From the NCBI GenBank assembly GCA_046758705.1, contig JBHIAT010000016.1, positions 1 to 34,349 on the forward strand: DNA of 34,349 nucleotides, written 5' to 3'. Positions 2,376-24,551 of this stretch are shown here, piece after piece. The notes under the pieces are model-generated. The model was not told the origin of the DNA. It ran no database searches and worked only from the letters and a program-made list of their open reading frames with translations. Made by a program: the position numbers and the translations under genes. Source of the stretch: Candidatus Bipolaricaulia bacterium (GTDB taxonomy: Bacteria > Bipolaricaulota > Bipolaricaulia > JBHIAT01). Within the stretch, counting starts at the first letter, position 1; every line of letters starts with the position of its first letter.

Positions 2376-2936
2376 TTATGCATTTATCCGATAAATTTTG
2401 CCCATTTCTTTCGCTTTTTCGATGAACTTCGCCGCTTTCACCGGTTCAAACGGCAAGATTTCGCACTCAATCCCTTCTAAAGCGGGCGAATCCACGGCAG
2501 TAGTGACCAGCGCCAATGTGCCAGGCAACGCCAGTGGAGGTTCCGTTGTGGCCTCGGGTCGATACACCTCGATTTTGGGAAAGGCTCGGCTTTTGAAACC
2601 TTCTAACAGCAGGAAATCAAGCTGACACCCTTGAAAGTAACGGTTCAGGATATCCTCTGCCTCCCAGGACTTTTCGAGCTGTTCAATGTAGGCGACTTTC
2701 GTCGGACCCACCACCCCGACCGCAATCGCCCCTGCCCGTTGAAATTTTCTGCTATCGGTATCGTCACGGTCCATCTGAAAGCCGTGGTGCGTGTGTTTCA
2801 ACGCCCCGACGCGCAGTCCCCGTTGGGTCCAATGCGAAATGAGCCCCTGCATGAGCGTCGTCTTGCCCATGTTCTTATGGCCGATGATGCTCACCACGGG
2901 GCATGGGAATTTCGTCAAGACCGAGTCCATATTCAT
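2376..2936 (-). CDS. mobB: Molybdopterin-guanine dinucleotide biosynthesis protein B
   Basis: GHKNMGKTT P-loop, LKHTHHGF, DSRKF..AGA, LLEGFK...PKIEV. Confidence 0.92.
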   Translation of the reverse strand: MNMDSVLTKFPCPVVSIIGHKNMGKTTLMQGLISHWTQRGLRVGALKHTHHGFQMDRDDTDSRKFQRAGAIAVGVVGPTKVAYIEQLEKSWEAEDILNRYFQGCQLDFLLLEGFKSRAFPKIEVYRPEATTEPPLALPGTLALVTTAVDSPALEGIECEILPFEPVKAAKFIEKAKEMGKIYRINA

Positions 2937-3086
2937 GAGCCCCCTTCCTCAGCTTTGATCCAGACCGCCGAGTCGTGATCTTTACCATCGATTTTAATGA
3001 AGTGGAGCGAAGTTTTCTATATCTTCATCTTCACCGATCGGTTCCGAAGACGCTGATCATGGTCTGGGTACCGTTGCCCCTCAAGC

Positions 3087-3194
3087 TGACGTGACTCATC
3101 TCCCTCTTCAACACCGATCAAATTTCTCAATGAATAAAACCTCTCTTTCTCCATGACTACTGTCATAGACCCTTGGGAAGTTTAAACGAATAAT
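3087..3194 (+). promoter_or_regulatory. Crp/Fnr-type promoter of the molybdoenzyme operon
   Basis: TGACtactGTCA 3154-3165, then 23 nt, then AATAAT 3189-3194. Extra box TGACgtgaCTCA 3087-3098. Confidence 0.65.
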
Positions 3195-3234: not shown

Positions 3235-4005
3235 ATGGAATTAGCTCAAACCAAAGCTGCTGCGGACCCCTTGGTCCAAATGCGCCAGGACCTGCAGCGC
3301 GCCCTGGCCAAGCCTGTGGAACAACGCAGCTGGGCGATGGTCATCGATATTCGCAGATGTGTGGGTTGCCGCGCCTGCGAGGCAGCCTGCATTCTAGAGA
3401 ACGTGCTCCCGCCCGGCGTGGCCTACCGGACGGTCCCCAGCGTCGAGTGGACTCATCCCCGCCTAGGGGAAGTCCGGCCGGTCTTCATGCCGGCCAACTG
3501 CATGCAGTGTGCCCGGCCCCCCTGCGTGGCGGCAGCGAACGCGGTCGTCCCAGGGAGCTTCAAGCAGCGGCCCGACGGGATCGTAACGATCGATTACGAG
3601 AAGGCCTATGCTCAGGGGAGAGAGGTTTTCGAGGCTGCGGCCCGTGCTTGTCCCTACCGCCAGGCGCTCTACTACGACGACGGCCGCTCCTGGACCGACA
3701 AACCTGATTGGACCCGGCCCACCTACGAATACAATCGGAAGTGGACCCGGGAAGAGGTCAGCGGTTCCCCCAGGAAGTGTCACTTCTGCCTGCATCGGCT
3801 GGAGGCGGGCATCCTGCCGGCCTGTGTGACAACCTGCATCGGCCGGGCCATCTACTTCGGCGACCTTAACGACCCGGAGAGCTTCGTCTCCCAAACCCTA
3901 CGGGAGGAGCACGCCCAAGTCTTAAGGATCCGGGAATATCGGGGTACTGAGCCTCAGGTCTATTACCTGAGCGACACGCCCAAGGAGTGCCAACGTTGGC
4001 ACTGA
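3235..4005 (+). CDS. Fe-S electron-transfer subunit (DmsB/ArrB/PsrB-like) with one cluster's ligands missing
   Basis: CVGCRACEAAC, CMQCARPPC, ACPY, KCHFC-x11-CVTTC, FGDLNDPES, GTEPQVYYL. RBS AAGGAGG. No Tat signal. Confidence 0.93.
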   Translation: MELAQTKAAADPLVQMRQDLQRALAKPVEQRSWAMVIDIRRCVGCRACEAACILENVLPPGVAYRTVPSVEWTHPRLGEVRPVFMPANCMQCARPPCVAAANAVVPGSFKQRPDGIVTIDYEKAYAQGREVFEAAARACPYRQALYYDDGRSWTDKPDWTRPTYEYNRKWTREEVSGSPRKCHFCLHRLEAGILPACVTTCIGRAIYFGDLNDPESFVSQTLREEHAQVLRIREYRGTEPQVYYLSDTPKECQRWH

Positions 4006-4031
4006 TGCCAAGCGAAGAAGGAGGTACAACG

Positions 4032-6620
4032 ATGCTCACCACCAAGATCTCTCGGCGCGGCTTCCTGAAGGCCACGGGTTTTGCCACCGCCGCCGCCCTG
4101 ATGGGAGGTATGCTGAAGGATGGGTCTGTTTGGGCCTTCCAGGAGGCTCCCGTGTTGAAGGAGGAGCTGAAGGAGATCATCCCGAGCGCCTGCTGGATCG
4201 GCAAGCAGGACTGTGGACTCTTCGCCTGGAAGGCGGAGGGGCGCGTCATCAAGTTCGAAGGGCATCCGGATGAGCCGCGCACCCACGGAGCCCTCTGCCC
4301 CAAGGGCCAGAGCCAGATCGCTTCGCTCTACGACCCCTATCGGGTGAAGGCCCCCCTCAAGCGGACGAACCCCAAGGGCCAACCGGGCCAGTGGATCGAG
4401 ATCAGTTGGGATCAGGCATTGAGCGAGATCGCGGCCAAGCTCAAGGAGATCAAGGAGACCGACATTCGGCGCTTCATCTGGCAGGTCGGACGGAAGAAGG
4501 CGAAGTATTGGCACCACGAGGCCTTTAATAAAGCGTTCGGCACCGTCAACAAGTACGGTCACGGGGCGACCTGCTCCGATGCGGGCTACCGGGCGGAGGA
4601 GTTGATCTTCGACCAGCACGGCTGTGCCGAAGTGGACTTCAAGCACTGCGAGTATTTCCTCGCTTGGGGCTGGAACATCACGCAGGCTGGCGGGCCACAC
4701 CTCTGCCAGATCACCTGGCCCCAGCAGATCATAGAAGCAAAAAGACGGGGCATGAAGATCGTTGCGCTGGACCCCCTGATCCGCGGGGGCGCCCACCTGG
4801 TCGATGAGTGGGTGTCCATCAAGCCCGGAATGGACCTGGCCTTCTGGCTGGCCATGGCTAACGTCTTGGTCGAGAAGGGTTACCTTGACGAGCCGTATCT
4901 GAAGAAGTTCACGAACGCCCCGGTGCTCGTAGGGCCGGATGGGCTGTTGCTCATCCAGGACGGCAAGGAGCTGGTCTGGGATCCCGCAGCCGGGCAGGCC
5001 TGGCCCCATGAGGAGGTGGCCGACCCCGCGCTCACCGGCACCTATGCGATCAACGGGGTGGAGTACAAGACAGCCTTCCAGCTGTACCAGGAACACATTG
5101 CCAAATACACGCCCGAGTGGGCGGCCGAAAAATGTGGCGTGGCCGCGGAAAAGATCCGTCAAATAGCCACAGAGTTCGGCGAGAAGGCCCAGATCGGGAA
5201 GACGATCACCATCGAGGGCGTGGAGGTTCCGTATCGGCCGGTGGGCATTGGCTTCTACCACGTGGTTCAGCAGGAGCTGGGCGCGATCGTGGCCTACGCC
5301 GCCTTCCAGGTGACAATGCTGGTGGGCGCGGTGGATGTGGCTGGCAGCACGCGGCCGCGCAAGGGCAAGGACACAAAGCCCGACGTGAAGCACCGCAAGA
5401 AGTGGATCGATTTGGCTATGCATCCCGAAAAGGTCAAAGAGATCCCCGATGGCCCTTCCCTCGACGGTACCAAGTTCTTCCCGATCAGCAGCGGTGGCTA
5501 CACGATCACCCCGCTGGTGCTCGCCAACCCCGAGAAGTACGACCTGCCCTACCAGCCGGAGCAGATGGCCATGTGGGTGCAGATGGCCAACCCCGTCATG
5601 TCCTCGATGCCCCAAGATGTGGTTATCCGGGGCTTGAGCCGGCTGGGGCTGATGGTCGTGGTCGACCCGTTCATGAGCGAGACGGCCGACTACTGCGCCG
5701 ACTACGTGCTCCCCGCGGCCACCATCGACAAGTACGAGGGACCGCTGAGCGGCTTCACCGGGTATGAGAAGGTCTCGCTGCTGCGGTTCCCCGTGGTGCC
5801 CCCGATGTTCGATTCCAAGCCCGACGCCGAGATTTACATCGAGATGGCCGAGCAGCTCGGGATCCTGGAGCAGTACGTCGAGGCGCTCAACGGGCAACTC
5901 AAGCTGAAGGAGGAGTTGAAGCTCGATCCGGCCCAGAAGCCCAGCCTGGAGGATGCGCTCGACCGCTGGGCGAAGAGCCAGGGCAAAAGCCTCCAGTGGT
6001 TTAGAGAGCACGGGGTCTTGGTCAAATCGATGCCGGTTCAGCAGTGGTATGCGTATCTTTGGGACCCACCGTACGGCGGGGTCAAGCACGCCTTCTACTC
6101 TGAGGTCCTGCTCCGCCTGGGCCGAACCGTGCGGGAGCGGGGCGTGAACGCACCCTACGTGCAGGACTACAACCCATTTCCCACTTGGCGGAAGCCGGCG
6201 ATGATGCAGTCGCCGCCGGAGTACGATCTAACCCTGATCAGCTTCCATAAGATCGAGCACAAGCAGTCCCGCACGGCAAACAACGTCATCCTCAACGCGA
6301 TGGACCCCATCAGCTACGTCCGCCTGCACCCGGAGACGGCGAGGGCGAAGGGCATCAGAGATGGCGATGAGGTCTGGGTGGAATCCCACAACGCCGTGAC
6401 GGGTGAGACCCGCCGGGTCAAAGGACGGGCTAAGCTCACCGAAGGCCTCATGCCGGGGGTGATGGCAATCGCTCATCACCATGGAAACTGGAGCCACCCC
6501 ATCACGAAGGAAAGGGATCAAGGCATCTCGCCCAACGTGATCTTCCCCTCGGGCGAGGGCTACGTCGGTCTCACGGGCGACCAGGCTTTCCAGGTGAAGG
6601 TTAAGGTGTCCAAGGCTTAA
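4032..6620 (+). CDS. Tat-exported Mo/W-bisPGD oxidoreductase catalytic subunit (DMSO reductase family; Arr/Arx/Psr/Anr neighbourhood)
   Basis: SRRGFLK Tat motif. FS0 region CWIGKQDC-x27-CPKG. Predicted Mo-ligand region HGATCSDAG. DPFMSETADYCADYVLP. C-terminal LHPETARAKGIRDGDEV. RBS GAAGGAGG supports ATG 4032 over the track's 3987. Confidence 0.93.
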   Translation: MLTTKISRRGFLKATGFATAAALMGGMLKDGSVWAFQEAPVLKEELKEIIPSACWIGKQDCGLFAWKAEGRVIKFEGHPDEPRTHGALCPKGQSQIASLYDPYRVKAPLKRTNPKGQPGQWIEISWDQALSEIAAKLKEIKETDIRRFIWQVGRKKAKYWHHEAFNKAFGTVNKYGHGATCSDAGYRAEELIFDQHGCAEVDFKHCEYFLAWGWNITQAGGPHLCQITWPQQIIEAKRRGMKIVALDPLIRGGAHLVDEWVSIKPGMDLAFWLAMANVLVEKGYLDEPYLKKFTNAPVLVGPDGLLLIQDGKELVWDPAAGQAWPHEEVADPALTGTYAINGVEYKTAFQLYQEHIAKYTPEWAAEKCGVAAEKIRQIATEFGEKAQIGKTITIEGVEVPYRPVGIGFYHVVQQELGAIVAYAAFQVTMLVGAVDVAGSTRPRKGKDTKPDVKHRKKWIDLAMHPEKVKEIPDGPSLDGTKFFPISSGGYTITPLVLANPEKYDLPYQPEQMAMWVQMANPVMSSMPQDVVIRGLSRLGLMVVVDPFMSETADYCADYVLPAATIDKYEGPLSGFTGYEKVSLLRFPVVPPMFDSKPDAEIYIEMAEQLGILEQYVEALNGQLKLKEELKLDPAQKPSLEDALDRWAKSQGKSLQWFREHGVLVKSMPVQQWYAYLWDPPYGGVKHAFYSEVLLRLGRTVRERGVNAPYVQDYNPFPTWRKPAMMQSPPEYDLTLISFHKIEHKQSRTANNVILNAMDPISYVRLHPETARAKGIRDGDEVWVESHNAVTGETRRVKGRAKLTEGLMPGVMAIAHHHGNWSHPITKERDQGISPNVIFPSGEGYVGLTGDQAFQVKVKVSKA

Positions 6621-6642
6621 GGGCCGTGAGGGGGCTGCAGCG

Positions 6643-7308
6643 ATGGTGCTGACCATAGGGCTTGGCAGGCAGGCGGCCAAGGTCTACCGCTTCCTCAGCC
6701 GAGCCTACCTGCAGCCTCCGGATCGTCCCTATCTTGAGGCCGTCGCCGCCTGGAGCGCCGAGCTTCTCGCGTGCCGTGAGCCCCTTCCCGAAGGGATCGT
6801 CTCGGCACTCGAGCTCATTCAGGAGGCCCTTAAACCGGGCGTTGAGAGGCGGTTGCGGGAGCTCCAGCAAGAGTACGTGCGCCTCTTCCGCGGCCTCTCC
6901 CCACACTATTCGCCTCCACCCCCCTACGAGTCGGTTTACCGAGAGGGAGCTTTGTGGGGCTTCTCGACGGCCGCCGTTCGGAGGAGATACCGGGAGTTCG
7001 GCCTGGAGTCCGGTGGAGATTTCAGCCGCGAACCTCCCGATCAGCTGGGGCTCGAGCTGCAGTTCATGAGCCACCTATGCGAGCGAGGGGCCCATGAGCG
7101 CTCCCAACACCTGTTGCAGGCGCAACACGATTTCCTTGTGGAGCACCTGTCATGGGTTGGAGCGTTTGAGGAGCGGGTGCGCTCGCATCGGCCCCATCCC
7201 TTCTACGAGGGCTTCCTGCGACTGACGGGGGCATGGCTCAAGCTCCACCGGGAGCATCTTGCCGCGTTCCAGAAGACGACCCGGAGCCTGGAGTCGGAAT
7301 CGGGATAA
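6643..7308 (+). CDS. TorD/DmsD family redox enzyme maturation chaperone
   Basis: EYVRLF, PPPYESVY, EPPDQLGLELQFM, FLVEHLSW. Directly follows the catalytic subunit. Confidence 0.92.
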   Translation: MVLTIGLGRQAAKVYRFLSRAYLQPPDRPYLEAVAAWSAELLACREPLPEGIVSALELIQEALKPGVERRLRELQQEYVRLFRGLSPHYSPPPPYESVYREGALWGFSTAAVRRRYREFGLESGGDFSREPPDQLGLELQFMSHLCERGAHERSQHLLQAQHDFLVEHLSWVGAFEERVRSHRPHPFYEGFLRLTGAWLKLHREHLAAFQKTTRSLESESG

Positions 7309-7491: not shown

Positions 7492-8490
7492 ATGAACAGA
7501 AGAAGATGGTATCTTGCCGGGATCGTGGTGCTGCTCTTAGCCGCTATAGGACTGGGATTTGCTTCTCAATCCCAGCAGGCGGGGAACGTGCTCACTGTGG
7601 TCAGAGTCACCTCCCCTCCAACCCTCGACGGGCGGATGGACGATCTGTGGGCTCAGGCTGACGCCATTCAGGTGCCCGTCTTCGCCGGAGCCAACATGGG
7701 ATCGACTACGGTGGCTCTGAAGGCCGTTTATACGGACGATGCGATCTACTTCCTCGCCCGTTGGCAGGATCCAACCCTGAGCCTGAGGCGGTTCCCCTGG
7801 CAGAAACAGGAGGATGGGAGCTGGAAACAGCTCACAACAAGCGCCGAGCACGACGAGAACACCTACTATGAAGACAAATTTGCCATCCTGTGGAACATCG
7901 ATAACTCCATCGCAGGCTTCAACCAGAGCGGTTGCATGGTGGCGTGCCACGTGGGTGAGGGGAAAGCCTATGGCAACATGCGTACCGCCTCGGAAGGAGA
8001 GCTCGGAGATATGTGGCACTGGAAGTCCGTCCGGACCGGACCGGTGGGTCAGCTGGACGACAAGTACCTGAATAATACCTCCCCCTCAGGACGCCACGCC
8101 GATCCCAAACAGGAGGGAGGCTATTCCAACAACGTCAACCAGGCCGGAGACCGACCCGCCTTCACTGCCGCCAGTCAACCGGTACCTCCATACTGGATCT
8201 ATGACGACGAGAAGACCCCGTTCATGGATATCTACCAGGTCGGGGATGAGATCGCCGGCATCATCGTCTCTCCCTTCGTGGGGGACCGCGGGGATGTGAA
8301 GGCGGAAGCGTACTACGAGGATGGCCTGTGGACTCTGGAGATCGGTCGTAAGCTGGCCACAGGCAGTCCGTATGATGCTCAGTTCGATGACCTGTCCGAG
8401 AGTTACTTATTCGGTGTGGCCGTCTTCGACAATGCACAGGTGCGGCACGCCTTCTCCGGCGGTGTTTACGAACTGCGGTTTGGCAGATAG
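7492..8490 (+). CDS. Exported ethylbenzene dehydrogenase gamma-like (EB_dh/DOMON) heme-binding protein
   Basis: Signal peptide, PTLDG...W, IYFLARWQDPT, YYEDKFAILW, CMVACH (Cx3CH), DMWHWKS, W.LEIGRKL.TG, FGVAVFDN. RBS AAGGAG supports ATG 7492. Confidence 0.85.
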   Translation: MNRRRWYLAGIVVLLLAAIGLGFASQSQQAGNVLTVVRVTSPPTLDGRMDDLWAQADAIQVPVFAGANMGSTTVALKAVYTDDAIYFLARWQDPTLSLRRFPWQKQEDGSWKQLTTSAEHDENTYYEDKFAILWNIDNSIAGFNQSGCMVACHVGEGKAYGNMRTASEGELGDMWHWKSVRTGPVGQLDDKYLNNTSPSGRHADPKQEGGYSNNVNQAGDRPAFTAASQPVPPYWIYDDEKTPFMDIYQVGDEIAGIIVSPFVGDRGDVKAEAYYEDGLWTLEIGRKLATGSPYDAQFDDLSESYLFGVAVFDNAQVRHAFSGGVYELRFGR

Positions 8491-9025: not shown

Positions 9026-9451
9026 GTGAATCCCATGGTTGCGAAGACCCGAAAGAAGCGCTACCAGATGGCCGTCGGGGTCACGGTGATCGTGATCGGA
9101 ATCGGGTACCTGCTGATCTCAAGCTTCTCCGGAACCACCGTCTACTACTATCAGGTCGATGAGCTAAGCGATCTGGAGATCCTCCCCACCGAGCGGATCC
9201 GGGTGAGCGGGCAACTGGTTCCGGGGACGGTCAACTACGACCCCACGATCCCGATGTTACGGTTCACCCTGGCGAGCGAGGGCAGCTCAGCACAACTTCA
9301 GGTCATCTATCGGGAGATCCAACCCGATAACTTCCTGAGGAGCACCGAGGTGGTGGTGACCGGTTACCTGGAGGGCGATCGATTCACCGCCGAGGAGATG
9401 TTGGTCAAGTGCCCGTCGCGGTATGAGTCCGTCCCAGAGGAGGGAAGCTGA
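9026..9451 (+). CDS. ccmE: Heme chaperone CcmE, CxxxY type
   Basis: N-terminal TM, IRVSG.LVPG, PDNF...EVVVTG, MLVKCPSRY. Confidence 0.93.
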   Translation: MNPMVAKTRKKRYQMAVGVTVIVIGIGYLLISSFSGTTVYYYQVDELSDLEILPTERIRVSGQLVPGTVNYDPTIPMLRFTLASEGSSAQLQVIYREIQPDNFLRSTEVVVTGYLEGDRFTAEEMLVKCPSRYESVPEEGS

Positions 9452-11415
<1,964 letters not shown>

Positions 11416-11419
<4 letters not shown>

Positions 11420-11892
11420 ACCTAAGCCTAAGCTCAAGCTCAGGCAAAGCGCTCCCGGTGACGTTGATCTTGCTGATCTTTCTGGCCTCGACCCCCGTCT
11501 CCGATATCGAGGACCAGCTGATCTGCCAATGCGGCTGCACCATGGTCGTCTCCTCCTGCCAGTGTAGCGTGGCCGATGAGATGCGCGCTGAGATCGCCGC
11601 CAAGTTGGAGATGGGAATCACATCTGGACAGATCATCCAGGGGTTTGTCGATCGCTACGGCGAGGCGGTCCTCTCCGCCCCCACCAAACGCGGGTTCAAT
11701 CTGACCGCCTGGGTGACCCCGTTCGTCGCCGTCGTCGCTGGCTTGGTCCTGCTTTATTTCATTGTGCGGGGACTTGTCTCGCGAGGAGGACAGTTGGTCG
11801 AGAACCGCCCTCCGGCCTCGGCAAATCTGGACGAGGAGACGCGAGCGCGGATCCGGGAGGAAATCGACGAGGAGCTCAAGGGCTACATGTGA
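11416..11892 (+). CDS. ccmH: CcmH-like cytochrome c biogenesis protein (CxCGC...CxC variant)
   Basis: LICQCGCTMVVSSCQCSVADEMRAEI, FVDRYGEAVLSAP...GFN..AW..P. ATGA overlap with ccmF. Confidence 0.8.
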
Positions 11893-11902
11893 GGTGTTCC
11901 CC

Positions 11903-12166
11903 ATGTTCGCAACCACCGTGGGTCTGCTGATCGCGGCGGCCGTCGGCCTTTATATCTTCCTCCCTTATTTCATCGGAGAGGAGAAACAGCGAGAGGAAGA
12001 CCCGATGGACCGGGAAATCAGACGGGAGGAGCTGATGAGAGAGCTCGCCGATCTGGAGTACGACCTCCAGACCGGAAAACTGAGGCAGGCGGACTACGAA
12101 GCGCTCCGGGCCGATCTGGAGAACCAGCTGGTACAACTCAAGGGGGAACCATCAGATGATCGGTGA
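11903..12166 (+). CDS. Small membrane protein resembling the CcmI N-terminal region
   Basis: TM followed by ELADLEYDLQTGKL..ADYEAL. RBS GAGGTG before ATG 11903. Confidence 0.65.
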   Translation: MFATTVGLLIAAAVGLYIFLPYFIGEEKQREEDPMDREIRREELMRELADLEYDLQTGKLRQADYEALRADLENQLVQLKGEPSDDR

Positions 12167-12893
12167 GGGCAACCACCCTGACCTGCTGGAGCTGGTCGAC
12201 GTCTCCAAGGTAATTGGAGACCGTAAGATTCTCAACCGAATCTCCTTCCGATTCAGACGGGGAAAGCGCTACTACCTGGCGGGCGCGAACGGCTCCGGCA
12301 AGACGACCCTGTTCAAGGTGATCGCCTCCCGCATGAGGGCAACCCGCGGACAGGTCCGATACGAAGGCCGCAACATCGCAGATCTCGATGGGCAGTATTT
12401 GAGAAAGGTCGCGTTTCTGTCGCACGAGCTGAACATGTACGAAGAGTTGAGCGGCCTGGACAACCTCGAATTCTTCGGCCAGGTGTACCGGGTTCCAAGA
12501 CCCTGGGAACGGGCCATGGAGTTGATCGAGCGGGTCGGCCTGAGACTGTTCGCAAACGAGCGGGTGAAATACTACTCGCGCGGGATGCGCCAGCGACTGG
12601 CGGTCGCCAAAGCCCTGCTCCACGATCCGACTGTGCTCCTGTTCGATGAGCCGTTCGCCGGGTTGGATCTGCGGGGTGTGGCCATGCTGGAGGAGATCAT
12701 CGACGAGATGCTGCCCAAAGGTCAAGGGCTGTTCATCCTGGCGACACACGATCCAGGGATCGCCTGGAGGTTAACAGATCACTATCTCTATTTGGAACGG
12801 GGCACGCTCCAATCCTATGGGGGCCAGGAACGGTACGTTCACCAGGATATCGAGCGCAAACTGAGGGAAGCGCGGGATGTGGGGGTGTACTGA
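12156..12893 (+). CDS. ccmA: Heme ABC exporter ATPase CcmA
   Basis: GANGSGKTT, YSRGMRQRL, LLFDEPFAGLD; ccm context. Confidence 0.9.
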   Translation: MIGEGNHPDLLELVDVSKVIGDRKILNRISFRFRRGKRYYLAGANGSGKTTLFKVIASRMRATRGQVRYEGRNIADLDGQYLRKVAFLSHELNMYEELSGLDNLEFFGQVYRVPRPWERAMELIERVGLRLFANERVKYYSRGMRQRLAVAKALLHDPTVLLFDEPFAGLDLRGVAMLEEIIDEMLPKGQGLFILATHDPGIAWRLTDHYLYLERGTLQSYGGQERYVHQDIERKLREARDVGVY

Positions 12894-13570
12894 TGGAGCT
12901 CATCACCGGAGCATGGCTGGTCTTCAAAAAGGACATCCGCTATGAGCTTGAGAACAAGGAGACGCTGATTATCCTGTTCGTCTTCTCGCTGACTGTCGCG
13001 CTCACCTTCAACTTCGCCTTCGACCTGTCCCGTACGGAAGCCCGCCGGTTCCTGCCGGGGTTGATCTGGATCACGGCGTTGTTTGCGAGCGTTTTGGGCT
13101 TCAACAAGAGTATGGCGTTTGAAAAACGGGGCGATGCCTACGGCGGACTGCTGATCGCCCCTATCCCGAAGACATCGATATTCTTGGGAAAAGTCTCGAG
13201 CTCGTTGGTCTTCCTGTGGGCCGTGGAGATGGTGGTGATCCCGCTGTTCTTCCTGTTTTTCAACGTCGAGCTGTCGGCCAAGATCTTCGGCTTCCTGGTC
13301 ATCGTATTCCTGTTGGGGAGCGTGGGGCTTTCGGTCATCGGCTCGTTTCTGACGAACCTGTGTCAGGGATCCAAAAACAGCGAGATCCTGTTCTCCTTGG
13401 GCTACTTTCCCCTGGTCGTTCCGATCTTGATATCGGGCACGAAGCTCTCTGCGGGCATACTAGACGGGAAGTCGATCGTCGCAGGTCCGTGGGTGAAGCT
13501 GTTGATCATCTTCGGTCTGGTCTACACGGTCATCTGTCTTCTGTTGTTTGAGTATCTGGTGGAGGAATGA
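12893..13570 (+). CDS. ccmB: Heme exporter protein B
   Basis: KKDIRYE, PGLIW, FE..G...GLLIAP, IFLGK, FPLVVPILI; multi-TM. Confidence 0.9.
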   Translation: MELITGAWLVFKKDIRYELENKETLIILFVFSLTVALTFNFAFDLSRTEARRFLPGLIWITALFASVLGFNKSMAFEKRGDAYGGLLIAPIPKTSIFLGKVSSSLVFLWAVEMVVIPLFFLFFNVELSAKIFGFLVIVFLLGSVGLSVIGSFLTNLCQGSKNSEILFSLGYFPLVVPILISGTKLSAGILDGKSIVAGPWVKLLIIFGLVYTVICLLLFEYLVEE

Positions 13571-14268
13571 AGGAGATGAACGGCATCATGAACCGAAGAA
13601 GGATCGCCTTGTTGCTGCTCACCGCCGTGTTGATGGGGGTGAACCTGTATCTGATCTTCATCTACGCACCGAAAGAGCAGATCATGGGGGATGTCCAGAG
13701 GATATTCTACTTCCACATGCCGTTGGCCATCATCAGTTTCTTGGCGTTCCTGCTGACCTTTGTGAGCGGGATCCTTTACCTGAGGAGCCGGGATGTGAGG
13801 CATGACCTTCGAGCTCGGGCCTCTGCCGAAGTCGGATTGGTCTTCCTCAGCTTAGCGCTCATCACCGGCTCCCTGTGGGCCAAGGCGACCTGGGGGGTCT
13901 ACTGGACCTGGGAGCCGCGGCTGACCACGACGTTTATCCTGTGGCTCATGTACGTCTTCTATCTGACCCTGAGGGGGTATATCGAAGATCGGGAGAAGAT
14001 GCGGACGATCACGGCCGCCTACGGCGTGATCAGCTTTATCAACGTCCCGATCGTCTTCATGTCGATCCGTTGGTGGAGGACACTCCATCCGGTGTTGATC
14101 GATACCAATGAGATCGCGATGGAGCCGCCCATGGTCGTTGCCCTGATCTTCTCGATCTTCACGTTCGTGGGTCTGTTCGCCCTGCTGTTGAGTGAACGGA
14201 CCCGACTGGCCAAACTGGAACATGAGCTCCAACGCGCCAAAGAGCGGATAAAGGAGGCATGGCGATGA
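13567..14268 (+). CDS. ccmC: Heme exporter protein C
   Basis: QRIFYFHMP, WAKATWGVYWTWEPRLTT, SIRWWRTLHP. Confidence 0.95.
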   Translation: MKEMNGIMNRRRIALLLLTAVLMGVNLYLIFIYAPKEQIMGDVQRIFYFHMPLAIISFLAFLLTFVSGILYLRSRDVRHDLRARASAEVGLVFLSLALITGSLWAKATWGVYWTWEPRLTTTFILWLMYVFYLTLRGYIEDREKMRTITAAYGVISFINVPIVFMSIRWWRTLHPVLIDTNEIAMEPPMVVALIFSIFTFVGLFALLLSERTRLAKLEHELQRAKERIKEAWR

Positions 14269-18057: not shown

Positions 18058-20379
18058 CTAGTGGACTTCCGACCGACGATCGCTCTCCTCCAGCTCTAAC
18101 GGATGCTCCTCCTCCATCCGTTCCAACGAGACCGTCCCGCTGATCCAAACCATGTCCATCGGGTAGACGTCGGGGTTGAAGATGACCCAGTAGAAGTGCC
18201 AGATCAGGATGGCCAACACGGCGAGGATCGCCTCGTAGAAGTGAGTGAGGATGAACAGGTCGATCCACCACTCGGGAAGGAACCTGAGCGTGATGTTCTC
18301 CAGCCAAAGGCTGAACCCGGTCAGTCCCATGACCATCGTTCCCCAGATCAGCGCCCAGTACTCGATCTTCTCGATGTAGCTGAACCGGTGGAATCTCGGG
18401 CGTTCGCTCAGCAGCCCCAGGTTGTAGCCGACGAGTTGGACGGCATCTCGAAGGTCTTGCATGCGGGGAAGCAGCGCCCTGAGCTGCTCCCTGCCTCGTT
18501 GGGTGAAGATGATGAGCAGGAGTTGGACGACGATGCTCGCCAGCAAGATCACAGCGGCGACCCTATGGATGAACCCCCTGACGGGATCCCCCCCCAGGCT
18601 CATCACCGGCGCGACCCACAGAGAGTCGGGATAGCGCCGGGCAAAGCCCGTATAGGCGAGGACGATAAACGAGACCAACATCGCCACGTGGAGAAACCGC
18701 TCCAGCCGGTTGAATCTGAGATAGAAAGCCTCAGACTCAGAGGGAGGGGACGCATGGGCGTGGGGGTGGGGGTGGGGATGGGGATGTACGTGTAGGGTTC
18801 CGCCCCGCTCCCCCATCTTCCTGAAGAAATCCACGACATTGTGGAGGAACATCCCCCCGACGGTGAAGCCGATCAACCCGATGTAGATGCGCCGGACCAG
18901 CCCGATGATCTGTCCCCCGGTTCCCGGTTCGTCTGTGTGGATCTTACCGACCAAAACGGTCTGCTCCCCAACACCGGGATGACACTGGCCACAGGTCTGC
19001 GGAAGGTTGTTGGGGTTCACCCAGGAAGCGGAGTCCGAAGACGGAAGGATCTTGTGTGCGCCGTGGCAGCTGGAGCAGTTGGCAACGGTCAGGTTACCAC
19101 CCCTCAGCGCGAGGCCGTGGTAGCTGGAGAGATAGGTCTCAAGCCGCATCGCCGGGATGCCATATCTTTCAGTAATTCTCACATTCCTGTGGCAGTCGGC
19201 ACAGGTGATAGGAATGTTGCGCGGGTAAACCGGGGAACCTGGGTCTTCAGGGGACAATATCGCATGCTCCAGATGGCAGTCGTTGCAGACCGGAGCCTCT
19301 CGGACCCCTGTTACATAACCCTTCCAGTGGATACTCTGGACGTAGTTCTCATAAACGGGCTCATGGCACTGGGAGCAGGTCTTCGGTATGTTTCCCTTGT
19401 GGATCGAGGACTTGAGCTCGGTCAGCGGTCTGATCTCGTGGCTTCCATGGCAATTGGTACAGGTGGCCACGTCGATGTTCCCCTGAGCGAGCGCTTGAGC
19501 ATGGACGCTTTTTTCATACAGTTCGTAGGGGTTTTCGATAGGGATCCCGTACTTCTGAGCCAGTTCAGGATCCGAATGGCACCTGCCACAGGTCGAGGGA
19601 AGGTTCTGGGGATAGATGAGAGAGCCCATCTCCCGCCCCGGAAGGATATTGTGCGTTCCATGACAATCCCAGCAGTGGGCGGCCTCCTCGATCCCTTCCC
19701 CGATGGCCTCCGCGTGGATACTTTCTTGGTAAAGTGCCTCAGCGCTCCGATGGCACAGGCCGCATCGGACCGATTCGAGTGTTGTGGCGTGGGGCAACCT
19801 GCCGATGCCTCGGTGACAATCGATACACTCCAGGTCTTTGTGGATGGATGCTTGATACATCTCGACGTCCACAAACGGAAACGGCCCACCCTGGATCCCG
19901 TGACATCTCTGACAGGTGTTGCGGTCGAACTGGGTCTCTACGTGATAGGTCTCCGAAGCGGCCACGTCCATATGGCAGGTGGAACAGAACCTCTCTATGT
20001 TCTGGGGATGGAGGGGGGACTCCGGGCTCGATCGGGGGTAGATCTCGTGCTCCCCATGACAGAGTGTACAGTCTGGAGCCTGCGTGTTTCCCCGCTCCCG
20101 CGCTCGGGCGTGAACGTCCAATTCGAAGCGCTGGGTCATATCCTGGTGACACAGCCCACAATCGATGCGCTTGGCGGGTACAGGATGGGGAAGCGCTTTG
20201 ATATCCTGGTGACAGTCGGTGCATCGGGTGCCCTCGTGAACGGTCGCGTTGAGATCCACATTCTGGTGGCAGATCATGCATGGCTCGTTGGGAAGCCCCT
20301 CGGGAATGCCCGGAACCTTCCAGACGAGCAGCAACCCGAGGAAAACTCTCAAGAAGATTCTTGTCTGCGAATCGCTCAT
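18058..20379 (-). CDS. CbcL-like fusion: 16-heme cytochrome c plus FdnI/HyaC-type cytochrome b membrane domain
   Basis: 16 CxxCH, then TM helices with ERFLH, FIHRVAA, RFSYIEKIEYWALIWG, THFYEAILA..AILIWHFY. Confidence 0.9.
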   Translation of the reverse strand: MSDSQTRIFLRVFLGLLLVWKVPGIPEGLPNEPCMICHQNVDLNATVHEGTRCTDCHQDIKALPHPVPAKRIDCGLCHQDMTQRFELDVHARARERGNTQAPDCTLCHGEHEIYPRSSPESPLHPQNIERFCSTCHMDVAASETYHVETQFDRNTCQRCHGIQGGPFPFVDVEMYQASIHKDLECIDCHRGIGRLPHATTLESVRCGLCHRSAEALYQESIHAEAIGEGIEEAAHCWDCHGTHNILPGREMGSLIYPQNLPSTCGRCHSDPELAQKYGIPIENPYELYEKSVHAQALAQGNIDVATCTNCHGSHEIRPLTELKSSIHKGNIPKTCSQCHEPVYENYVQSIHWKGYVTGVREAPVCNDCHLEHAILSPEDPGSPVYPRNIPITCADCHRNVRITERYGIPAMRLETYLSSYHGLALRGGNLTVANCSSCHGAHKILPSSDSASWVNPNNLPQTCGQCHPGVGEQTVLVGKIHTDEPGTGGQIIGLVRRIYIGLIGFTVGGMFLHNVVDFFRKMGERGGTLHVHPHPHPHPHAHASPPSESEAFYLRFNRLERFLHVAMLVSFIVLAYTGFARRYPDSLWVAPVMSLGGDPVRGFIHRVAAVILLASIVVQLLLIIFTQRGREQLRALLPRMQDLRDAVQLVGYNLGLLSERPRFHRFSYIEKIEYWALIWGTMVMGLTGFSLWLENITLRFLPEWWIDLFILTHFYEAILAVLAILIWHFYWVIFNPDVYPMDMVWISGTVSLERMEEEHPLELEESDRRSEVH

Positions 20380-20394
20380 CTTTCGCCTGGCTTC

Positions 20395-20456
20395 AGTGTA
20401 AATGATCCCGGATCAATTGCTATGATCCGGGTCACCGACCGGTATGATCCTCGATG
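20395..20456 (-). promoter_or_regulatory. Crp/Fnr-type internal promoter
   Basis: TGATccggGTCA 20423-20434; half site at 20445; TACACT on the minus strand (20400-20395), 22 nt from the box. Confidence 0.6.
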
Positions 20457-20468
20457 AGAAGCGATGGA

Positions 20469-22268
20469 CTAGAAGCGCGTGTGGCACTTCATACAGTTGG
20501 TCCCCTGGGGGGGCAGGTCGTTGGCGTGACAGGTGCTGCAGACTTCATGGCCAAGCTCCGGGACGGCCGTCTCCGATCGGGCGAACTCGAGGTGATCGAG
20601 GGTGTTCACATTCTGATGACACAGCTGGCACGGCAGACCGAACCCGATATGTCTCTCATGGGGGAAGGTGACGATCTCCGACACCGTTCCGATATCGGCC
20701 TCATGGCATGACAGGCAATCGGTCGGTGAGGCGGCACGCATCGCCTGCGCCCCGGGGTGACAGCGCTCACAGCTCTCCAGCGTCAGAGTCCCATGCTGAT
20801 CCAAATCCCCATGACAGATGGTGCATCGGATCCCGGCTTCCACAGCGTGGGGGCGGTGTTCAAACGTTCTTCCGAACGTCTCAGCCGCGATGTACTCGAT
20901 GCCATAGTGGCATTGGTTGCAGCTGATCTCGTAAGGGACCTGGAGCCAGGATTCCTCCAGGGTTTCCTCCACGCTGGCCTGCGTTAACGCGGCGTTCAGA
21001 GCCTCATGAGCCCTCTCCAACAGTGCCAGCGCGTAATCTGGGTTGTGGATGCCCCGTCCACGTTCCACCAGGTCGATATTCTTCCACGCCTCCTGCAAAA
21101 GCCCCTCGACCTCCCCCCCGATCCCGTCCAGTTTGCCCTTGACATGTACAAACTCCTCCTCTACGCCCCTCAGCCGGTTGTCCACCGATGCCTTCCAGCT
21201 CTTATAGATGGCGAAGTACCCGGTGTCGTGACAGTTCATACAGCTTACCTCATTGGCGACTCGGTGGGCCGCTTCGGGGAGGATATGACAACCCTCACAG
21301 CTGACACCGGCCAGATACATGGGACTGGGCTGGGGATTCACCCCCTTGCCTCCGATCCCGAGGTAAAGATCGCGGGTGGGGGAATGACCCAGCGAATGGC
21401 AGGTTTCACAGCTGGTTGCGATAATCTCCAGTTTCTCCGGGACCTGATGAGATATCTCCTGATGACAGTTCAGACACTCCACCTTATGCTCGGTGACATG
21501 GGTTGTATGCAGAAACTCGGTCTCGCCGTATCTCCGCAGTCTGGCCGGTTCGTTATGACAGGTATAACACCGATCGGTGGGGACGTCCCCCTCCCCTGTG
21601 ACCACCCCTTTATGGCAGAAGGTGCAGTCCATTCCGAACTGTCTCACGTCGTCATGGTCGAAGGCCAAGCCAGCGGTGGTGATGATCTGGCTGGGAACCT
21701 CATGGCACAGGGTGCAGCGGGCCGTCCCCTGGTTCAACGCCACCCCCTTGAAGTGGCACAGGGAACAGGTGCTGGTAGTGACGGTAATGTGCTGCCCCTG
21801 GACGATCTGCGAGTGGCAGCTGGTGCACCGGAGTTGCTTGCCCCGCCGGAGTTCGGTCAAGTGGGGACGGTGATCGAACAGGATCCCCTCAAAGACCTCC
21901 TTCCCCACGAGCAGGCGTTTTTCATGGCAACCAGCCCTGAGGCAGCTTTCATCAGATACCTCCGCCCAGGGGTTGGTGCCATAGGTCCCGGTCAGGTAGC
22001 TGACGACCATGGCGGAGGCCTCATACTTCTTTCTGAACGTGGAGACGATGCCCGGCGGGATATGGCACTCGACGCAGGCGACCTCGTTATGGCTGGAGGT
22101 TTTCCAGGACCGATAGTAGGGCTTCATAAAGTGACAGGTGTTGCAGAAGCCGGGGAGAGATGAGATCTCCATGCCGACGAACGCAAACGCAATCCCCAAC
22201 GGCACCAAGATGATGAGCACCATCCCGATCCGCTTCCCCCGCCGTCCCCTGATCCTGATCCGCCTCAT
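20469..22268 (-). CDS. Membrane-anchored multiheme cytochrome c with NapC/NrfH-like N-terminus (18 CxxCH + 1 Cx4CH)
   Basis: Basic N-terminus and TM, FCNTCHFM...SW..SSH..V.CVECH, CLRAGCH, further CxxCH motifs up to CMKCH. Confidence 0.9.
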   Translation of the reverse strand: MRRIRIRGRRGKRIGMVLIILVPLGIAFAFVGMEISSLPGFCNTCHFMKPYYRSWKTSSHNEVACVECHIPPGIVSTFRKKYEASAMVVSYLTGTYGTNPWAEVSDESCLRAGCHEKRLLVGKEVFEGILFDHRPHLTELRRGKQLRCTSCHSQIVQGQHITVTTSTCSLCHFKGVALNQGTARCTLCHEVPSQIITTAGLAFDHDDVRQFGMDCTFCHKGVVTGEGDVPTDRCYTCHNEPARLRRYGETEFLHTTHVTEHKVECLNCHQEISHQVPEKLEIIATSCETCHSLGHSPTRDLYLGIGGKGVNPQPSPMYLAGVSCEGCHILPEAAHRVANEVSCMNCHDTGYFAIYKSWKASVDNRLRGVEEEFVHVKGKLDGIGGEVEGLLQEAWKNIDLVERGRGIHNPDYALALLERAHEALNAALTQASVEETLEESWLQVPYEISCNQCHYGIEYIAAETFGRTFEHRPHAVEAGIRCTICHGDLDQHGTLTLESCERCHPGAQAMRAASPTDCLSCHEADIGTVSEIVTFPHERHIGFGLPCQLCHQNVNTLDHLEFARSETAVPELGHEVCSTCHANDLPPQGTNCMKCHTRF

Positions 22269-22278
22269 CGGCTCAGCT

Positions 22279-23478
22279 TCACCTCCGCCGCGGACCCCTT
22301 CGGTAGAGATAGATCACCAGGACGATGGACAGGACATAGACCCAGAAGATGGACAGTCCCACCAACCGGAACCGGGTGGCACCCTGCAGGCCGTGAATCT
22401 CCCCCCAAACCTGCTCGCCGATCGACCTCGCCTGCCGGGTCAGCTCTTCCACCCGGGCTTCATCCAGAGAATGCTGCATCGGGAGGGCCTGGGTGAGGGC
22501 CGTGTTCGCCTGGTAGAGTCTCGACCGGTAGGTGGAGGTGTCAAAGCCGAGCCGCTCCACCTCGGCGCGCTCCGCCTCCGCCCGATCCACCGCCGCCTCG
22601 GCCTCGACGAGCAGGGTCTTCAATCGCTGCCCCGCCGCGAACGCATCAGAGCCTCTGGCATGGCACCCGATGCACGCCGTTTCGAACAGCTCGTGGTTGA
22701 CCTCCCTTATTGCATGGTCGCCGTGGCAGCTGACACATTCGGGGATCGTCTCCTGATCCATTGCCTGCTTGTGGGGACCTTCACGAAGCTGCTGTCGTGT
22801 CCGCAGATGGCATTGATCGCACACCTCTGAGATCCCCTTGACATCCGGGAGGCCCGTCCCGTGGACACCATGACAGGTCGCACAGTTGGGCGCTTTGCGA
22901 TTCTCCTCCTTCAGGAGGGCGACCCCGTGGACGCTCTCCGTAAACTGCTCGAATGGGTCGCTGGAGATCCCGTGATACGCCATGAGGGTGGTATCCGCGT
23001 GGCACCGGGCACAGGTCTCGGGCACGTTCTCCGGATAGACACTGCTCCTCGGCTCCTCGGGGGACAAGATACGATGCGCCGTATGGCAATCTGTACAGAC
23101 CGCTACGTCGGTATCCCCGGCTGCAAGGCGAATCCCATGCTGAGAGGTTCGGTACTGTGCATATTGATCGGTGGGGATGTCATAGGATCTCATCGCCACC
23201 GGATCGGCGTGGCACGAGGCACACAGCTCAGGGATCCCCGATCGCTTCGGTCTTCCCTTGAATCCGGTCTCTGGGGCCATCGCCTCCATGCCTGTCACCG
23301 TCCCATCTCCCCCGTGACAGTCGACACAGGTGATGGCGAGGTTGGTGTGCACGCTCTCGCGGTACTCCACCCGGATCCGGCTGTGGCAGACACTGCAGGA
23401 GGTCCCTTCCTCGCCAACCGCCCCGAATGCTGATCCGATCACGATGGCGATCGCGATCCACAACACGGCTTTGATCAA
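22279..23478 (-). CDS. 9-heme cytochrome c with signal peptide and C-terminal membrane anchor
   Basis: 9 CxxCH, C-terminal TM followed by RRGPRRR. TTG start with GGAGGAGG RBS, coupled to the upstream gene. Confidence 0.9.
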   Translation of the reverse strand: MIKAVLWIAIAIVIGSAFGAVGEEGTSCSVCHSRIRVEYRESVHTNLAITCVDCHGGDGTVTGMEAMAPETGFKGRPKRSGIPELCASCHADPVAMRSYDIPTDQYAQYRTSQHGIRLAAGDTDVAVCTDCHTAHRILSPEEPRSSVYPENVPETCARCHADTTLMAYHGISSDPFEQFTESVHGVALLKEENRKAPNCATCHGVHGTGLPDVKGISEVCDQCHLRTRQQLREGPHKQAMDQETIPECVSCHGDHAIREVNHELFETACIGCHARGSDAFAAGQRLKTLLVEAEAAVDRAEAERAEVERLGFDTSTYRSRLYQANTALTQALPMQHSLDEARVEELTRQARSIGEQVWGEIHGLQGATRFRLVGLSIFWVYVLSIVLVIYLYRRGPRRR

Positions 23479-23888
23479 CGGCCTCCTCCTTCAAAGTAGC
23501 CCAGGATGGAGAAGAGCACCATCAAACTCACCGCCACCAACCCCAAAGTGATCGCTACGGGTCTCTTCTTAGGATGCCTCTCTGGATTTCGATCCAAGAA
23601 AGGCCACAGGAACAACAGCACGATGGCCAATATCCCCACGACAATCCCCAGGCCGTGGGGGAGATACACGAACAGTTGATGGACGGCGAGCAGATACCAC
23701 GGGGGGGTGGCGTCTTCGAAGCGGTGCAGCGGGTCGGCCTGATCCTGGAGGGAAGGAGAGAGGAGCACGGCCAACGAGACCAGGATCCCCAAGGCAAGGA
23801 GCAGGGCGATCGACAGATCGAGAATGAGATCCAGGAACCGTATATGGCCCTCGTTGCGACTCTGACCCTTACCCTTACCCTCGTCCAT
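23475..23888 (-). CDS. Cytochrome b C-terminal part (subunit IV, PetD/QcrC-like)
   Basis: ADP......TPPWYLL (PEWY-equivalent), LWPFLDR.PERHP.KRP. Confidence 0.88.
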   Translation of the reverse strand: MDEGKGKGQSRNEGHIRFLDLILDLSIALLLALGILVSLAVLLSPSLQDQADPLHRFEDATPPWYLLAVHQLFVYLPHGLGIVVGILAIVLLFLWPFLDRNPERHPKKRPVAITLGLVAVSLMVLFSILGYFEGGGR

Positions 23889-23901
23889 CGTCCCTCACAT
23901 C

Positions 23902-24540
23902 CTACTCCAGCGGCTCGCTGATCCCCAGCCGGCGGATCAGCAGCACATGGAGGAACAGGAACAGGATCATGATCCAAGGCAGGATGCCGACATGGAAGAC
24001 GTAGAACCGCAGCAGGGTCGCCTCGGTCACCTCGGTCCCGCCCCACAGGAGACGGAGGAAGAACCCTCCCAGGACCGGCAGATCGCCGATGATCCTCCTG
24101 AACGAGTCGATGACCCAGAACGCCCGTTGATCCCAAACGAGCAGATATCCCGTGAACGCGAAGATCCAAGTCCCCAGCAACAGAAACACTCCGACGACCC
24201 AGTTCAGCTCTCTGGGGGGTTTATAGGACCCGTAGAAGTAGACGCGCAGCAGGTGCAACAGCAGGGTCAGCATCATCAGGTCAGCCCCCCACTTATGAAC
24301 TCCCCGGATCAGCCAGCCCAGTCTGGCATCGGACATGATGAACCGCACGCTCTGATACGCCTCTTCGGTGGACGGGTGGTAATAGATCATCAACAGGACC
24401 CCGGTGACCACCTGGACCAGGAACAGGAGCAGGGTGATGCCACCGAGATAATAAAGGTAGTTGACGTGGGGGGGGATGATCCAGTTGATCTCGTCATCGA
24501 GGATCTCCCTCAGCCTGTCGACGACCCTTCCTTTTATCAT
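23902..24540 (-). CDS. Cytochrome b6-like subunit (PetB/QcrB-like)
   Basis: LGGIT..LF.VQVVTG, GWLIRGVHKWGA..M...LLHLLRVY, KPPRELNW, RFYVFH...LH. Confidence 0.93.
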   Translation of the reverse strand: MIKGRVVDRLREILDDEINWIIPPHVNYLYYLGGITLLLFLVQVVTGVLLMIYYHPSTEEAYQSVRFIMSDARLGWLIRGVHKWGADLMMLTLLLHLLRVYFYGSYKPPRELNWVVGVFLLLGTWIFAFTGYLLVWDQRAFWVIDSFRRIIGDLPVLGGFFLRLLWGGTEVTEATLLRFYVFHVGILPWIMILFLFLHVLLIRRLGISEPLE

Positions 24541-24551
24541 ATCTTAATATC

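Follow-up and report, generated by a model that had tools for sequence, protein, structure and literature searches.

A Bipolaricaulota genome recovered from a hydrothermal vent carries a three-gene molybdoenzyme operon that, with a probability we place near 60%, specifies an oxyanion oxidoreductase of two subunits that is soluble in the periplasm and exchanges electrons with cytochromes there. The operon occupies positions 3235 to 7308 of a 34,349-nucleotide contig (JBHIAT010000016.1 in GenBank assembly GCA_046758705.1), and this whole stretch of DNA is called the window throughout. Its genes are arranged in the order B-A-D, for an iron-sulfur subunit (B), a catalytic subunit (A), and a maturation chaperone (D). 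The source is a metagenome-assembled genome (MAG) of 3.70 Mb in 319 contigs, 93.9% complete and with 4.7% contamination, and the sample is represented by three DNA runs from one study.

The first gene (3235..4005, + strand) encodes a 256-aa TtrB/DsrO-like iron-sulfur subunit that matches Fer4_11 at 1e-18. The open reading frame (ORF) of A begins at GTG 3987, but its likely start is ATG 4032, which yields an 862-aa protein identical to database record P0006. The gene for A (4032..6620, + strand) thus specifies a catalytic subunit with all three domains of the MopB family (Molybdop_Fe4S4, Molybdopterin, and Molydop_binding) and a twin-arginine translocation (Tat) motif, SRRGFLK (TIGR01409, 20.4 bits versus a cut-off of 16.7). 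Domains, motifs, and trees together identify it as a Tat-exported protein that binds molybdenum or tungsten through a bis-pyranopterin guanine dinucleotide (bisPGD) cofactor, has a Cys ligand, and belongs to an unnamed clade that we define in this analysis and call family X. The third gene (6643..7308, + strand) encodes a chaperone of the TorD/NarJ family (Nitrate_red_del/TorD, PF02613, 2e-30). A preliminary description of this region, made from the letters alone, had proposed this gene order and content and had pointed to the lack of a membrane anchor gene; the ORFs, Pfam domains, Tat motif, and TorD match agree with the former, and the latter holds well beyond the window. Profiles for NrfD (PF03916), DmsC (PF04976), and NarI (PF02665) each gave 0 matches in the whole 3.70-Mb genome, and control genomes were positive.

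The case for an enzyme without an anchor is sharper than the one first made, for the B subunit has been swapped and the ligands of its distal cluster are gone. Judged by its sequence, window B belongs to a lineage other than that of the B subunits of family X, with which it shares 31 to 38% identity, compared with 49 to 51% for the B subunits of Ttr-like B-NrfD-A operons. Its best curated profiles are TtrB (136 bits, cut-off 416) and DsrO (111 bits, cut-off 200). The protein contains 13 Cys residues. When 12 B subunits were aligned, four Cys residues, namely Cys 4 of group II and Cys 1 to 3 of group III, were found to be replaced in the window protein and in the B subunits of its two closest relatives (loci L081 and L001, 71–75% identical to window B) and to be kept in 9 of the 9 others. 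Based on NarH/PsrB-type proteins, we take these four residues to bind FS4, the cluster at the distal end, adjacent to the membrane subunit. Window B is therefore predicted to hold three [4Fe-4S] clusters and to have lost FS4. Because the FS4 segment has no Cys in 119 of the best 120 B-family sequences (query included) and a single Cys in the remaining one, three-cluster B subunits form a sizeable lineage.

The B subunit invites comparison with TtrBCA, in which B is likewise encoded first. Window B scores best on the TtrB profile and is 48 to 51% identical to B from Ttr-like operons. Unlike TtrBCA, however, the window has an A subunit that is not TtrA-like, lacks TtrC, and encodes a B subunit without its own Tat signal or FS4 ligands. 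Because B was found to lack a signal peptide of its own, its export would depend on binding to A.

Subunit A scored below every curated equivalog cut-off when scanned with the NCBIfam profiles. The values were 262.4 bits for PhsA (NF012032, cut-off 694), 141.8 bits for the type II alpha subunit (TIGR03479, cut-off 984.75), 125.3 bits for ArrA (NF041714, cut-off 1600), and 99.2 bits for TtrA (NF011567, cut-off 1750). For comparison, the Arr/Arx-like protein of a Burkholderiales MAG reaches 1068.7 bits on the ArrA profile. Eighteen relatives of A were scanned as well (two close homologues from family X and 16 library representatives), and none attains an NCBIfam cut-off. Subunit A does not fit the type II DMSO reductases (EbdABC, Nar, Nxr, and Ser), given that its ligand is Cys rather than Asp and that its alpha profile score is below the cut-off. 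The best solved-structure relatives by sequence are Thermus PsrA (1.4e-38) and ArrA (1.1e-29), and the ESM Atlas structure neighbors bear only generic names, including polysulfide reductase. Unnamed lineages of the Cys type are mentioned by Wells et al. (2020 and 2023), where nothing specific to the window clade turned up.

Relatives of A are numerous and widely distributed. In a collection clustered at 90% identity, 899 of 7997 scored candidates match; among the best 120 of these 899, 12 are 60 to 84% identical and the rest 46 to 55%. In a library of representatives at 50% identity, 664 clusters match A at E ≤ 1e-30. Relatives are encoded in 198 stretches of species genomes and 340 of metagenome contigs. 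Chloroflexota, Methylomirabilota/Rokubacteria, Acidimicrobiia, Nitrososphaeria, Halobacteria, Tectomicrobia, Nitrospinota, and Bipolaricaulota are among the named hosts, and a Bipolaricaulota MAG provides the best match from a genome (81–82% identity).

To place A among these proteins, we built two trees, both rooted on an Fdh-like MopB protein from the same genome. The first was a FastTree phylogeny of 167 rows, comprising window A, 18 close and 21 further homologues, 118 of 150 library representatives (720–1050 aa), and references; the second was an IQ-TREE phylogeny (LG+C20 with posterior mean site frequencies) of 46 of the 167 rows. The references were Salmonella PhsA from an annotated plasmid, one Arr/Arx-like protein (1069 bits, below the ArrA cut-off), and two TtrA-like proteins (415 bits, below the TtrA cut-off); sequences of PsrA, SrrA, and haloarchaeal PsrA were not among them. 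The plasmid collection that supplied PhsA also yielded one haloarchaeal homologue but neither ArrA nor TtrA. Window A falls in a clade (support 99) that comprises 14 rows of the large tree and 8 of the small one, and whose sister is a haloarchaeal clade (100). Both are nested in family X, which comprises 52 or 24 rows (99). In both trees, the PhsA, Arr/Arx-like, and TtrA-like references all lie outside a larger clade of 157 or 37 rows (96 or 98). An approximately unbiased (AU) test rejected the grouping of the window clade with the Arr/Arx-like reference (difference in log-likelihood of 152, p = 0.0012), the group having been named after the tree had been seen. The phylogenetic comparison that had been suggested with the preliminary description thus sets A apart from the three reference types that were included.

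Sequence motifs define family X further and agree with these trees. The segment HGATCSDAG, previously read as a Cys-type molybdenum-ligand region, does carry the ligand, as its Cys aligns with the ligand regions of Thermus PsrA and Shewanella ArrA in HMMER alignments. Likewise, GRKKAKY is the loop equivalent to RGRY of ArrA, as had been proposed, with R-G-R-Y aligning with V-G-R-K of the window. The ArrA stretch HSSVCAEAHK aligns with HGATCSDAGY, and only the Gly-Arg, His, and Cys residues of the ArrA motifs are kept. In family X, the motif of the N-terminal cluster FS0 reads C-W-I-G-K-Q-D-C (window 4170–4310, for example), such that Gly replaces the second Cys of the usual C-x2-C-x3-C. The other family motifs are the loop G-R-x-K-[AS] and the sequence HGAxCSDAGYR around the ligand Cys. 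All three occur in window A and, the two deepest excepted, in every family row shown, and C-x2-C-x3-C is kept in all other clades and references shown, except in the protein of locus L195 that is considered below. Judging from its ligands, the Gly variant of FS0 may be a [3Fe-4S] cluster or may employ a fourth ligand other than Cys.

The Shewanella arsenate reductase ArrAB (Protein Data Bank [PDB] entry 6cz7) resembles the window enzyme as a soluble periplasmic A-B pair that lacks a dedicated anchor, has a Cys ligand, and carries a G-R loop at the same place. Window A scores only 125 bits on the ArrA profile, for which the cut-off is 1600, and the AU test rejects a shared clade with the Arr/Arx-like reference. 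The (R/K)GRY loop and the Lys following the Cys ligand of ArrA presumably bind arsenate, and the other residues that we assume to take part are not kept in the window. In addition, an Arr/Arx-like B keeps all 16 Cys, unlike window B.

Gene order separates the window clade from the remainder of family X. Of 160 related loci that we scored, 125 have B downstream of A and two have it upstream; these two (L001, with an A of 81% identity, and L081, 78%) are the closest relatives of the window. The others comprise 23 loci that are cut downstream and uninformative, six without a long ORF for A, three cut on both sides, and one with B on neither side of A. The gene between B and D encodes NrfD in the four family-X loci scanned (L039, L022, L056, and L018) and in an annotated Natronorubrum plasmid record. 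In two Bipolaricaulota genomes whose A is 50% identical to that of the window, A and B are followed by a gene of 428 codons. The usual operon of family X is therefore A-B-NrfD-TorD with a four-cluster B, and the window form is B-A-D without NrfD. Anchored operons from Chloroflexota, Methylomirabilota, Acidimicrobiia, Nitrososphaeria, Halobacteria, and other groups share with the window the motifs, a related D, and an A subunit that is 43 to 55% identical over its full length, but they differ in having a four-cluster B downstream of A, NrfD, and often a polyferredoxin/FlpD-like gene and a module of PhnD, kinase, and LuxR proteins. In 62 of 163 loci, TorD is followed by the polyferredoxin, which has an MvhD/FlpD domain and looks cytoplasmic (L056:11584-13164 and L192:11961-14066 are examples); its presence beside a periplasmic, NrfD-anchored enzyme is unusual.

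We propose that the window enzyme is a derived form that works as follows. Family X is normally anchored to a quinol-oxidizing NrfD; in the small clade of the window the anchor is gone, and a TtrB-like subunit whose gene comes first has taken the place of the family-X B. TorD would retain A until insertion of the bisPGD cofactor is complete, after which A would take the signal-less B along through the Tat system by hitch-hiking. This B no longer has the ligands of FS4, the distal cluster that lies against the membrane subunit in anchored enzymes. With both the anchor and FS4 gone, electrons would have to be exchanged at FS3 of B, in either direction, through collisions with c-type cytochromes of the periplasm and would travel the path FS3-FS2-FS1-FS0-Mo. 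The cytochromes might in turn be fed by the Rieske/cytochrome b and multiheme quinol-oxidizing proteins encoded nearby. A precedent for reliance on a separate cytochrome is Shewanella ArrAB, which depends on CymA, a membrane multiheme cytochrome. In L081, the nearest relative with a complete operon, a multiheme cytochrome gene lies directly upstream of B.

The B-A-D order had also led to the suggestion that A might be related to antimonate reductase (Anr). The operon anrXSRBAD, which encodes this enzyme, was reportedly described from Geobacter sp. SVR by Kambara et al. in 2024. The window has the B-A-D order and TorD chaperone of an AnrA-type operon and likewise lacks an anchor gene, a comparison that concerns layout and not AnrA itself. 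It differs in that our domain scans of the window found no anrXSR-like genes (for a PhnD-like binder, a kinase, and a sigma-54 regulator), just as the preliminary description had stated. A closer look at the Anr proposal was made possible by a Rokubacteria MAG, in which a search with window B retrieved locus L195 (G191:C5:680-9146). There, genes for a PhnD-like binder (680–1615), a Cache/HAMP/HisKA kinase, and a sigma-54 response regulator are followed by B, A, and TorD, which we take to be the anrXSRBAD layout; L195 is Anr-like by layout only. Its B has its own Tat signal and all four clusters and is 48% identical to window B. Its A (940 aa) is only 28% identical to window A over 658 aligned columns (phmmer, 80.6 bits), lies on a long, separate, deep branch, lacks the G-R loop, and differs from family X in the FS0 stretch. 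From this pattern it seems that the window and the L195-type operon have the B-first scaffold in common but draw their catalytic subunits from different families. That A is an Anr-type respiratory antimonate reductase, with anrBAD separated from the anrXSR sensor genes, is thus highly improbable, even though the gene order, the kinship of the B subunits, and the hydrothermal-vent habitat would suit it: the A subunit of the layout-matching operon is distant and lacks the G-R loop and the FS0 motif of family X, and the X, S, and R genes are missing from the window. The alternative offered at the outset, that A represents a new clade, is borne out by both trees, which place it in an unnamed clade, whereas the Anr-like option finds no support in the indirect comparison with the A subunit of L195 (28% identity).

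Clues to the substrate come mainly from the anchored relatives. Among the 70 family-X loci with at least 3.5 kb of upstream sequence, 30 have a Cache/HAMP/HisKA_3 kinase upstream, 27 a LuxR-type response regulator, and 22 a PhnD-like periplasmic binding protein; all three occur together in 18. Upstream of a Natronorubrum homologue (38% identity) are genes for ArsR/SmtB, a protein-tyrosine phosphatase, a major facilitator superfamily (MFS) transporter, and MobA. Periplasmic binders of the AioX/PtxB type are PhnD-like, which is one basis for leaning toward an oxyanion. Three features favor an oxyanion of arsenic, antimony, selenium, or sulfur, namely the sensors of the PhnD-like type, the presence of ArsR, and the basic loop G-R-x-K, and the fact that PsrA and PhsA are the nearest characterized enzymes favors sulfur species. 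The substrate is most likely a small anion of this S/Se/As/Sb oxyanion kind, and the reaction probably runs in the reductive direction, although the FS0 variant leaves the direction open. The original proposal of a metalloid or oxyanion reductase remains plausible in view of the sensors of the relatives and the ArsR and phosphatase context.

The same relationships bear on a polysulfide, sulfur, or thiosulfate reductase, that is, an enzyme with Psr/Phs-type function in a soluble, cytochrome-fed form. PsrABC and PhsABC (Thermus PsrA, PDB 2vpw; Salmonella PhsA) have, like the window enzyme, a ferredoxin-like B and a bisPGD subunit that is exported by the Tat system, is ligated by Cys, and carries an Fe-S cluster near its N terminus. 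PhsA is the best curated profile for A (262 bits), Thermus polysulfide reductase is its best solved structure (1.4e-38), Atlas neighbors are named polysulfide reductase, and hydrothermal vents are a fitting habitat. Haloarchaea have psrABCD operons, including a TorD-like psrD, whose products are described as enzymes of sulfur respiration (PMC6176080). The sister clade of the window clade is also haloarchaeal, although no link between it and these published operons could be drawn. Nevertheless, we consider a Psr/Phs function unlikely. The PhsA score is far below the cut-off of 694, PhsA lies outside the clade in both trees, identity to these enzymes is about 24%, and the window differs from their operons in having no NrfD/PhsC anchor, a three-cluster B encoded first, and an FS0 without the second Cys. 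Moreover, no rhodanese or sulfurtransferase genes were present beside the three haloarchaeal loci inspected, and PhnD-like sensors suit an oxyanion better than polysulfide.

The unusual FS0 motif raises the question of whether the enzyme might instead be an oxidase like Arx or Aio, which would oxidize arsenite, antimonite, or sulfite and pass the electrons via c-type cytochromes to the Rieske/cytochrome b proteins. Arsenite oxidase has a high-potential [3Fe-4S] cluster and an FS0 motif that is similarly devoid of the second Cys, a trait found in all family-X rows shown. An enzyme uncoupled from quinol and encoded beside cytochromes would fit such a role, and an Aio/Idr-like enzyme is encoded in the same genome, so metalloid or halogen oxyanion chemistry is present there. 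Working against this idea, the anchored members of family X carry NrfD, as reductases of the Psr/Arr kind do, and an Asp or Lys beside the FS0 motif could complete a [4Fe-4S] cluster. On balance, we regard an oxidase as rather improbable.

Several points weigh against our preferred interpretation of a soluble, cytochrome-linked oxyanion enzyme. All evidence on the substrate is indirect, and the best structure and hidden Markov model matches are to polysulfide and thiosulfate reductases. The FS0 lacking its second Cys could point to the oxidative direction. Of the residues we take to bind arsenate in ArrA, three are changed in window A (Tyr to Lys, Ser to Gly, and Lys to Tyr), and no sensor module is encoded in the window. 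Regarding the electron path, the multiheme cytochrome of L081 has no BLAST match in the window genome. Finally, given a MAG of 319 contigs with 4.7% contamination, an anchor gene may conceivably sit on an unassembled piece.

We tentatively raise the broader prospect, which we hold with considerable reserve, that family X represents a functional class of its own among respiratory enzymes acting on oxyanions, present in hundreds of MAGs from more than 12 phyla, with a non-canonical FS0, a substrate new to MopB enzymes, and a PhnD-like sensor in many members. The window enzyme would then be a quinone-independent variant in which the catalytic subunit is mounted on a B-first scaffold of the Ttr/Anr type, with a three-cluster wire leading to FS3 and periplasmic cytochromes. 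Enzymes of the MopB family determine which oxyanions microbes can respire, so any clade without an assigned function may hide a step still absent from our picture of an element cycle. Should family X prove to act on a metalloid oxyanion, it would bear on the mobility of arsenic or antimony at vents and in aquifers. The window clade also amounts to a natural experiment in wiring, in which loss of the anchor goes together with loss of exactly those four Cys residues that hold FS4 and a swap of the electron-transfer subunit, and the PhnD-like sensors of the anchored relatives provide a direct experimental route to the substrate.

Beyond the operon, a gene that the preliminary description missed lies 184 nt downstream of D on the same strand (7492..8490, + strand) and has an AAGGAG ribosome-binding site. 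It encodes a c-type cytochrome of the EB_dh fold with an N-terminal membrane helix (PF09459, 147.6 bits). The AlphaFold model (predicted local distance difference test score of 88) places this helix at residues 3 to 22, and the fold is closest to those of NxrC and EbdC. A C-x3-C-H motif, which we read as a putative c-type heme site, is invariant in all of the best 120 homologues (50–79% identical, from many phyla). A literature search on EB_dh cytochromes with CX3CH turned up no paper on this protein. As an observation in its own right, the EB_dh/DOMON-fold family to which it belongs has members of about 340 aa that carry the invariant C-x3-C-H together with many invariant Trp, Asp, and Arg residues and are 50 to 60% identical across phyla.

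The position of this gene, the resemblance to NxrC and EbdC, and the membrane helix could be taken to mean that the EB_dh protein is the gamma subunit and membrane tether of the enzyme, as in ethylbenzene dehydrogenase or nitrite oxidoreductase. We find this very unlikely. The gene is absent from all 160 related loci, including L081, where a radical-SAM gene follows D instead, and the protein was not found in any of five family-X genomes searched. On the type II gamma profile (TIGR03477), it scores 18.5 bits versus a cut-off of 169.85. A terminator-like site precedes the gene: a weak hairpin of 5 pairs with an 8-nt loop and a T-rich tail lies at the end of D (7287..7304, + strand), although such sites number 8 in the region against 5.0 expected, which makes this one equivocal. 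At E ≤ 1e-40, orthologues of the gene were found in 0 of 301 Acidobacteriota genomes; in the phylum of the window, a single genome out of 183 others has one (34% identity), and orthologues are present in 65 of 251 Methylomirabilota genomes. In 15 Methylomirabilota loci from which we determined synteny (L208–L222), the neighbors include orthologues of other window genes, namely those for the 9-heme cytochrome in 10, cytochrome b in 8, the Rieske protein in 7, and the 18-heme NapC-like cytochrome in 7, whereas relatives of B and of A (at least 60 bits) each occur in 1 and D in none. This synteny indicates that the EB_dh protein belongs to a module of Rieske/cytochrome b and multiheme proteins. 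Rather than a subunit dedicated to the enzyme, it is the product of a neighboring gene and a candidate for relaying electrons.

Downstream of the operon, the window itself holds such a Rieske/cytochrome b set, along with four multiheme cytochromes and the genes for cytochrome c maturation. Besides the EB_dh gene, cytochromes are encoded at 15209–16972, 20469–22268, and 22279–23478, among other places. Pfam and NCBIfam matches identify a system I maturation set (CcmE, F, H, A, B, and C) at 9026..14268 (+ strand). At 18058..25001 (− strand), Pfam matches and heme motif counts reveal a Rieske protein, a split cytochrome b, and 9-heme, 18-heme, and 16-heme/cytochrome b561 fusion proteins, and this module is our candidate for the quinol-side electron source. 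The 18-heme protein has a NapC/NirT-like start. In the fusion protein (18058–20379, − strand), a multiheme domain with 16 CxxCH motifs is joined to a C-terminal cytochrome b561 membrane domain (PF01292). Another unusual fusion is encoded beside the Rieske/cytochrome b genes (25241–26605, + strand), where a UbiA prenyltransferase follows an N-terminal PNPOx-like domain of the flavin-binding type.

Upstream of B-A-D are genes for MobB, Rrf2, and FeoB. The nearest of these, the divergent gene for MobB (2376..2936, − strand; PF03205, 1e-36), functions in bisPGD cofactor synthesis. A sigma-70-like promoter match precedes B (3166..3194, + strand), but with 9 of 12 hexamer positions it is a weak consensus match only, and with three such sites in the region against 2.2 expected it is not evidence on its own. 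For control by Crp/Fnr, which had been put forward initially, we find no firm basis. The Crp/Fnr genes (27339–28160 and 28365–29114) are some 20 kb away, and the only FNR-like box upstream of B (2988–3001) is weak, with two mismatches; sites of this quality number 20 in the window versus about 10 by chance. At 27001 to 29000, the G+C content falls to 0.43 to 0.46, compared with 0.55 to 0.65 elsewhere, and this dip coincides exactly with the two Crp/Fnr genes.

The genome is atypical of its phylum, which is otherwise known for small fermentative or acetogenic genomes. At 3.7 Mb, it stands alone in its family code, and 28 other genomes of the phylum that were compared with it measure 1.1 to 2.1 Mb. 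Among 183 other genomes in the phylum, only three contain a strong relative of A and one a weak relative of the EB_dh protein. A literature search on respiration in Bipolaricaulota turned up nothing specific. The respiratory genes may constitute an acquired island, or the contig may be mis-binned.

Two further contigs of the same genome are of related interest. On one (C4:5395-10048, locus L167), a second, divergent EB_dh protein (54.7 bits) is encoded close to a cytochrome c gene and among genes of the Crp/Fnr type, three with a cyclic-nucleotide-binding (cNMP) domain plus a helix-turn-helix (HTH) domain and one with the cNMP domain only. On the other (C43:15592-21864, corresponding to L166:4093-10365), there are two di-heme cytochrome c peroxidase genes, a Rieske gene, and a MopB gene with the Rieske-type 3Fe-4S domain PF18465, a layout that we take to be that of iodate reductase IdrABP1P2 or of an arsenite oxidase with peroxidases.

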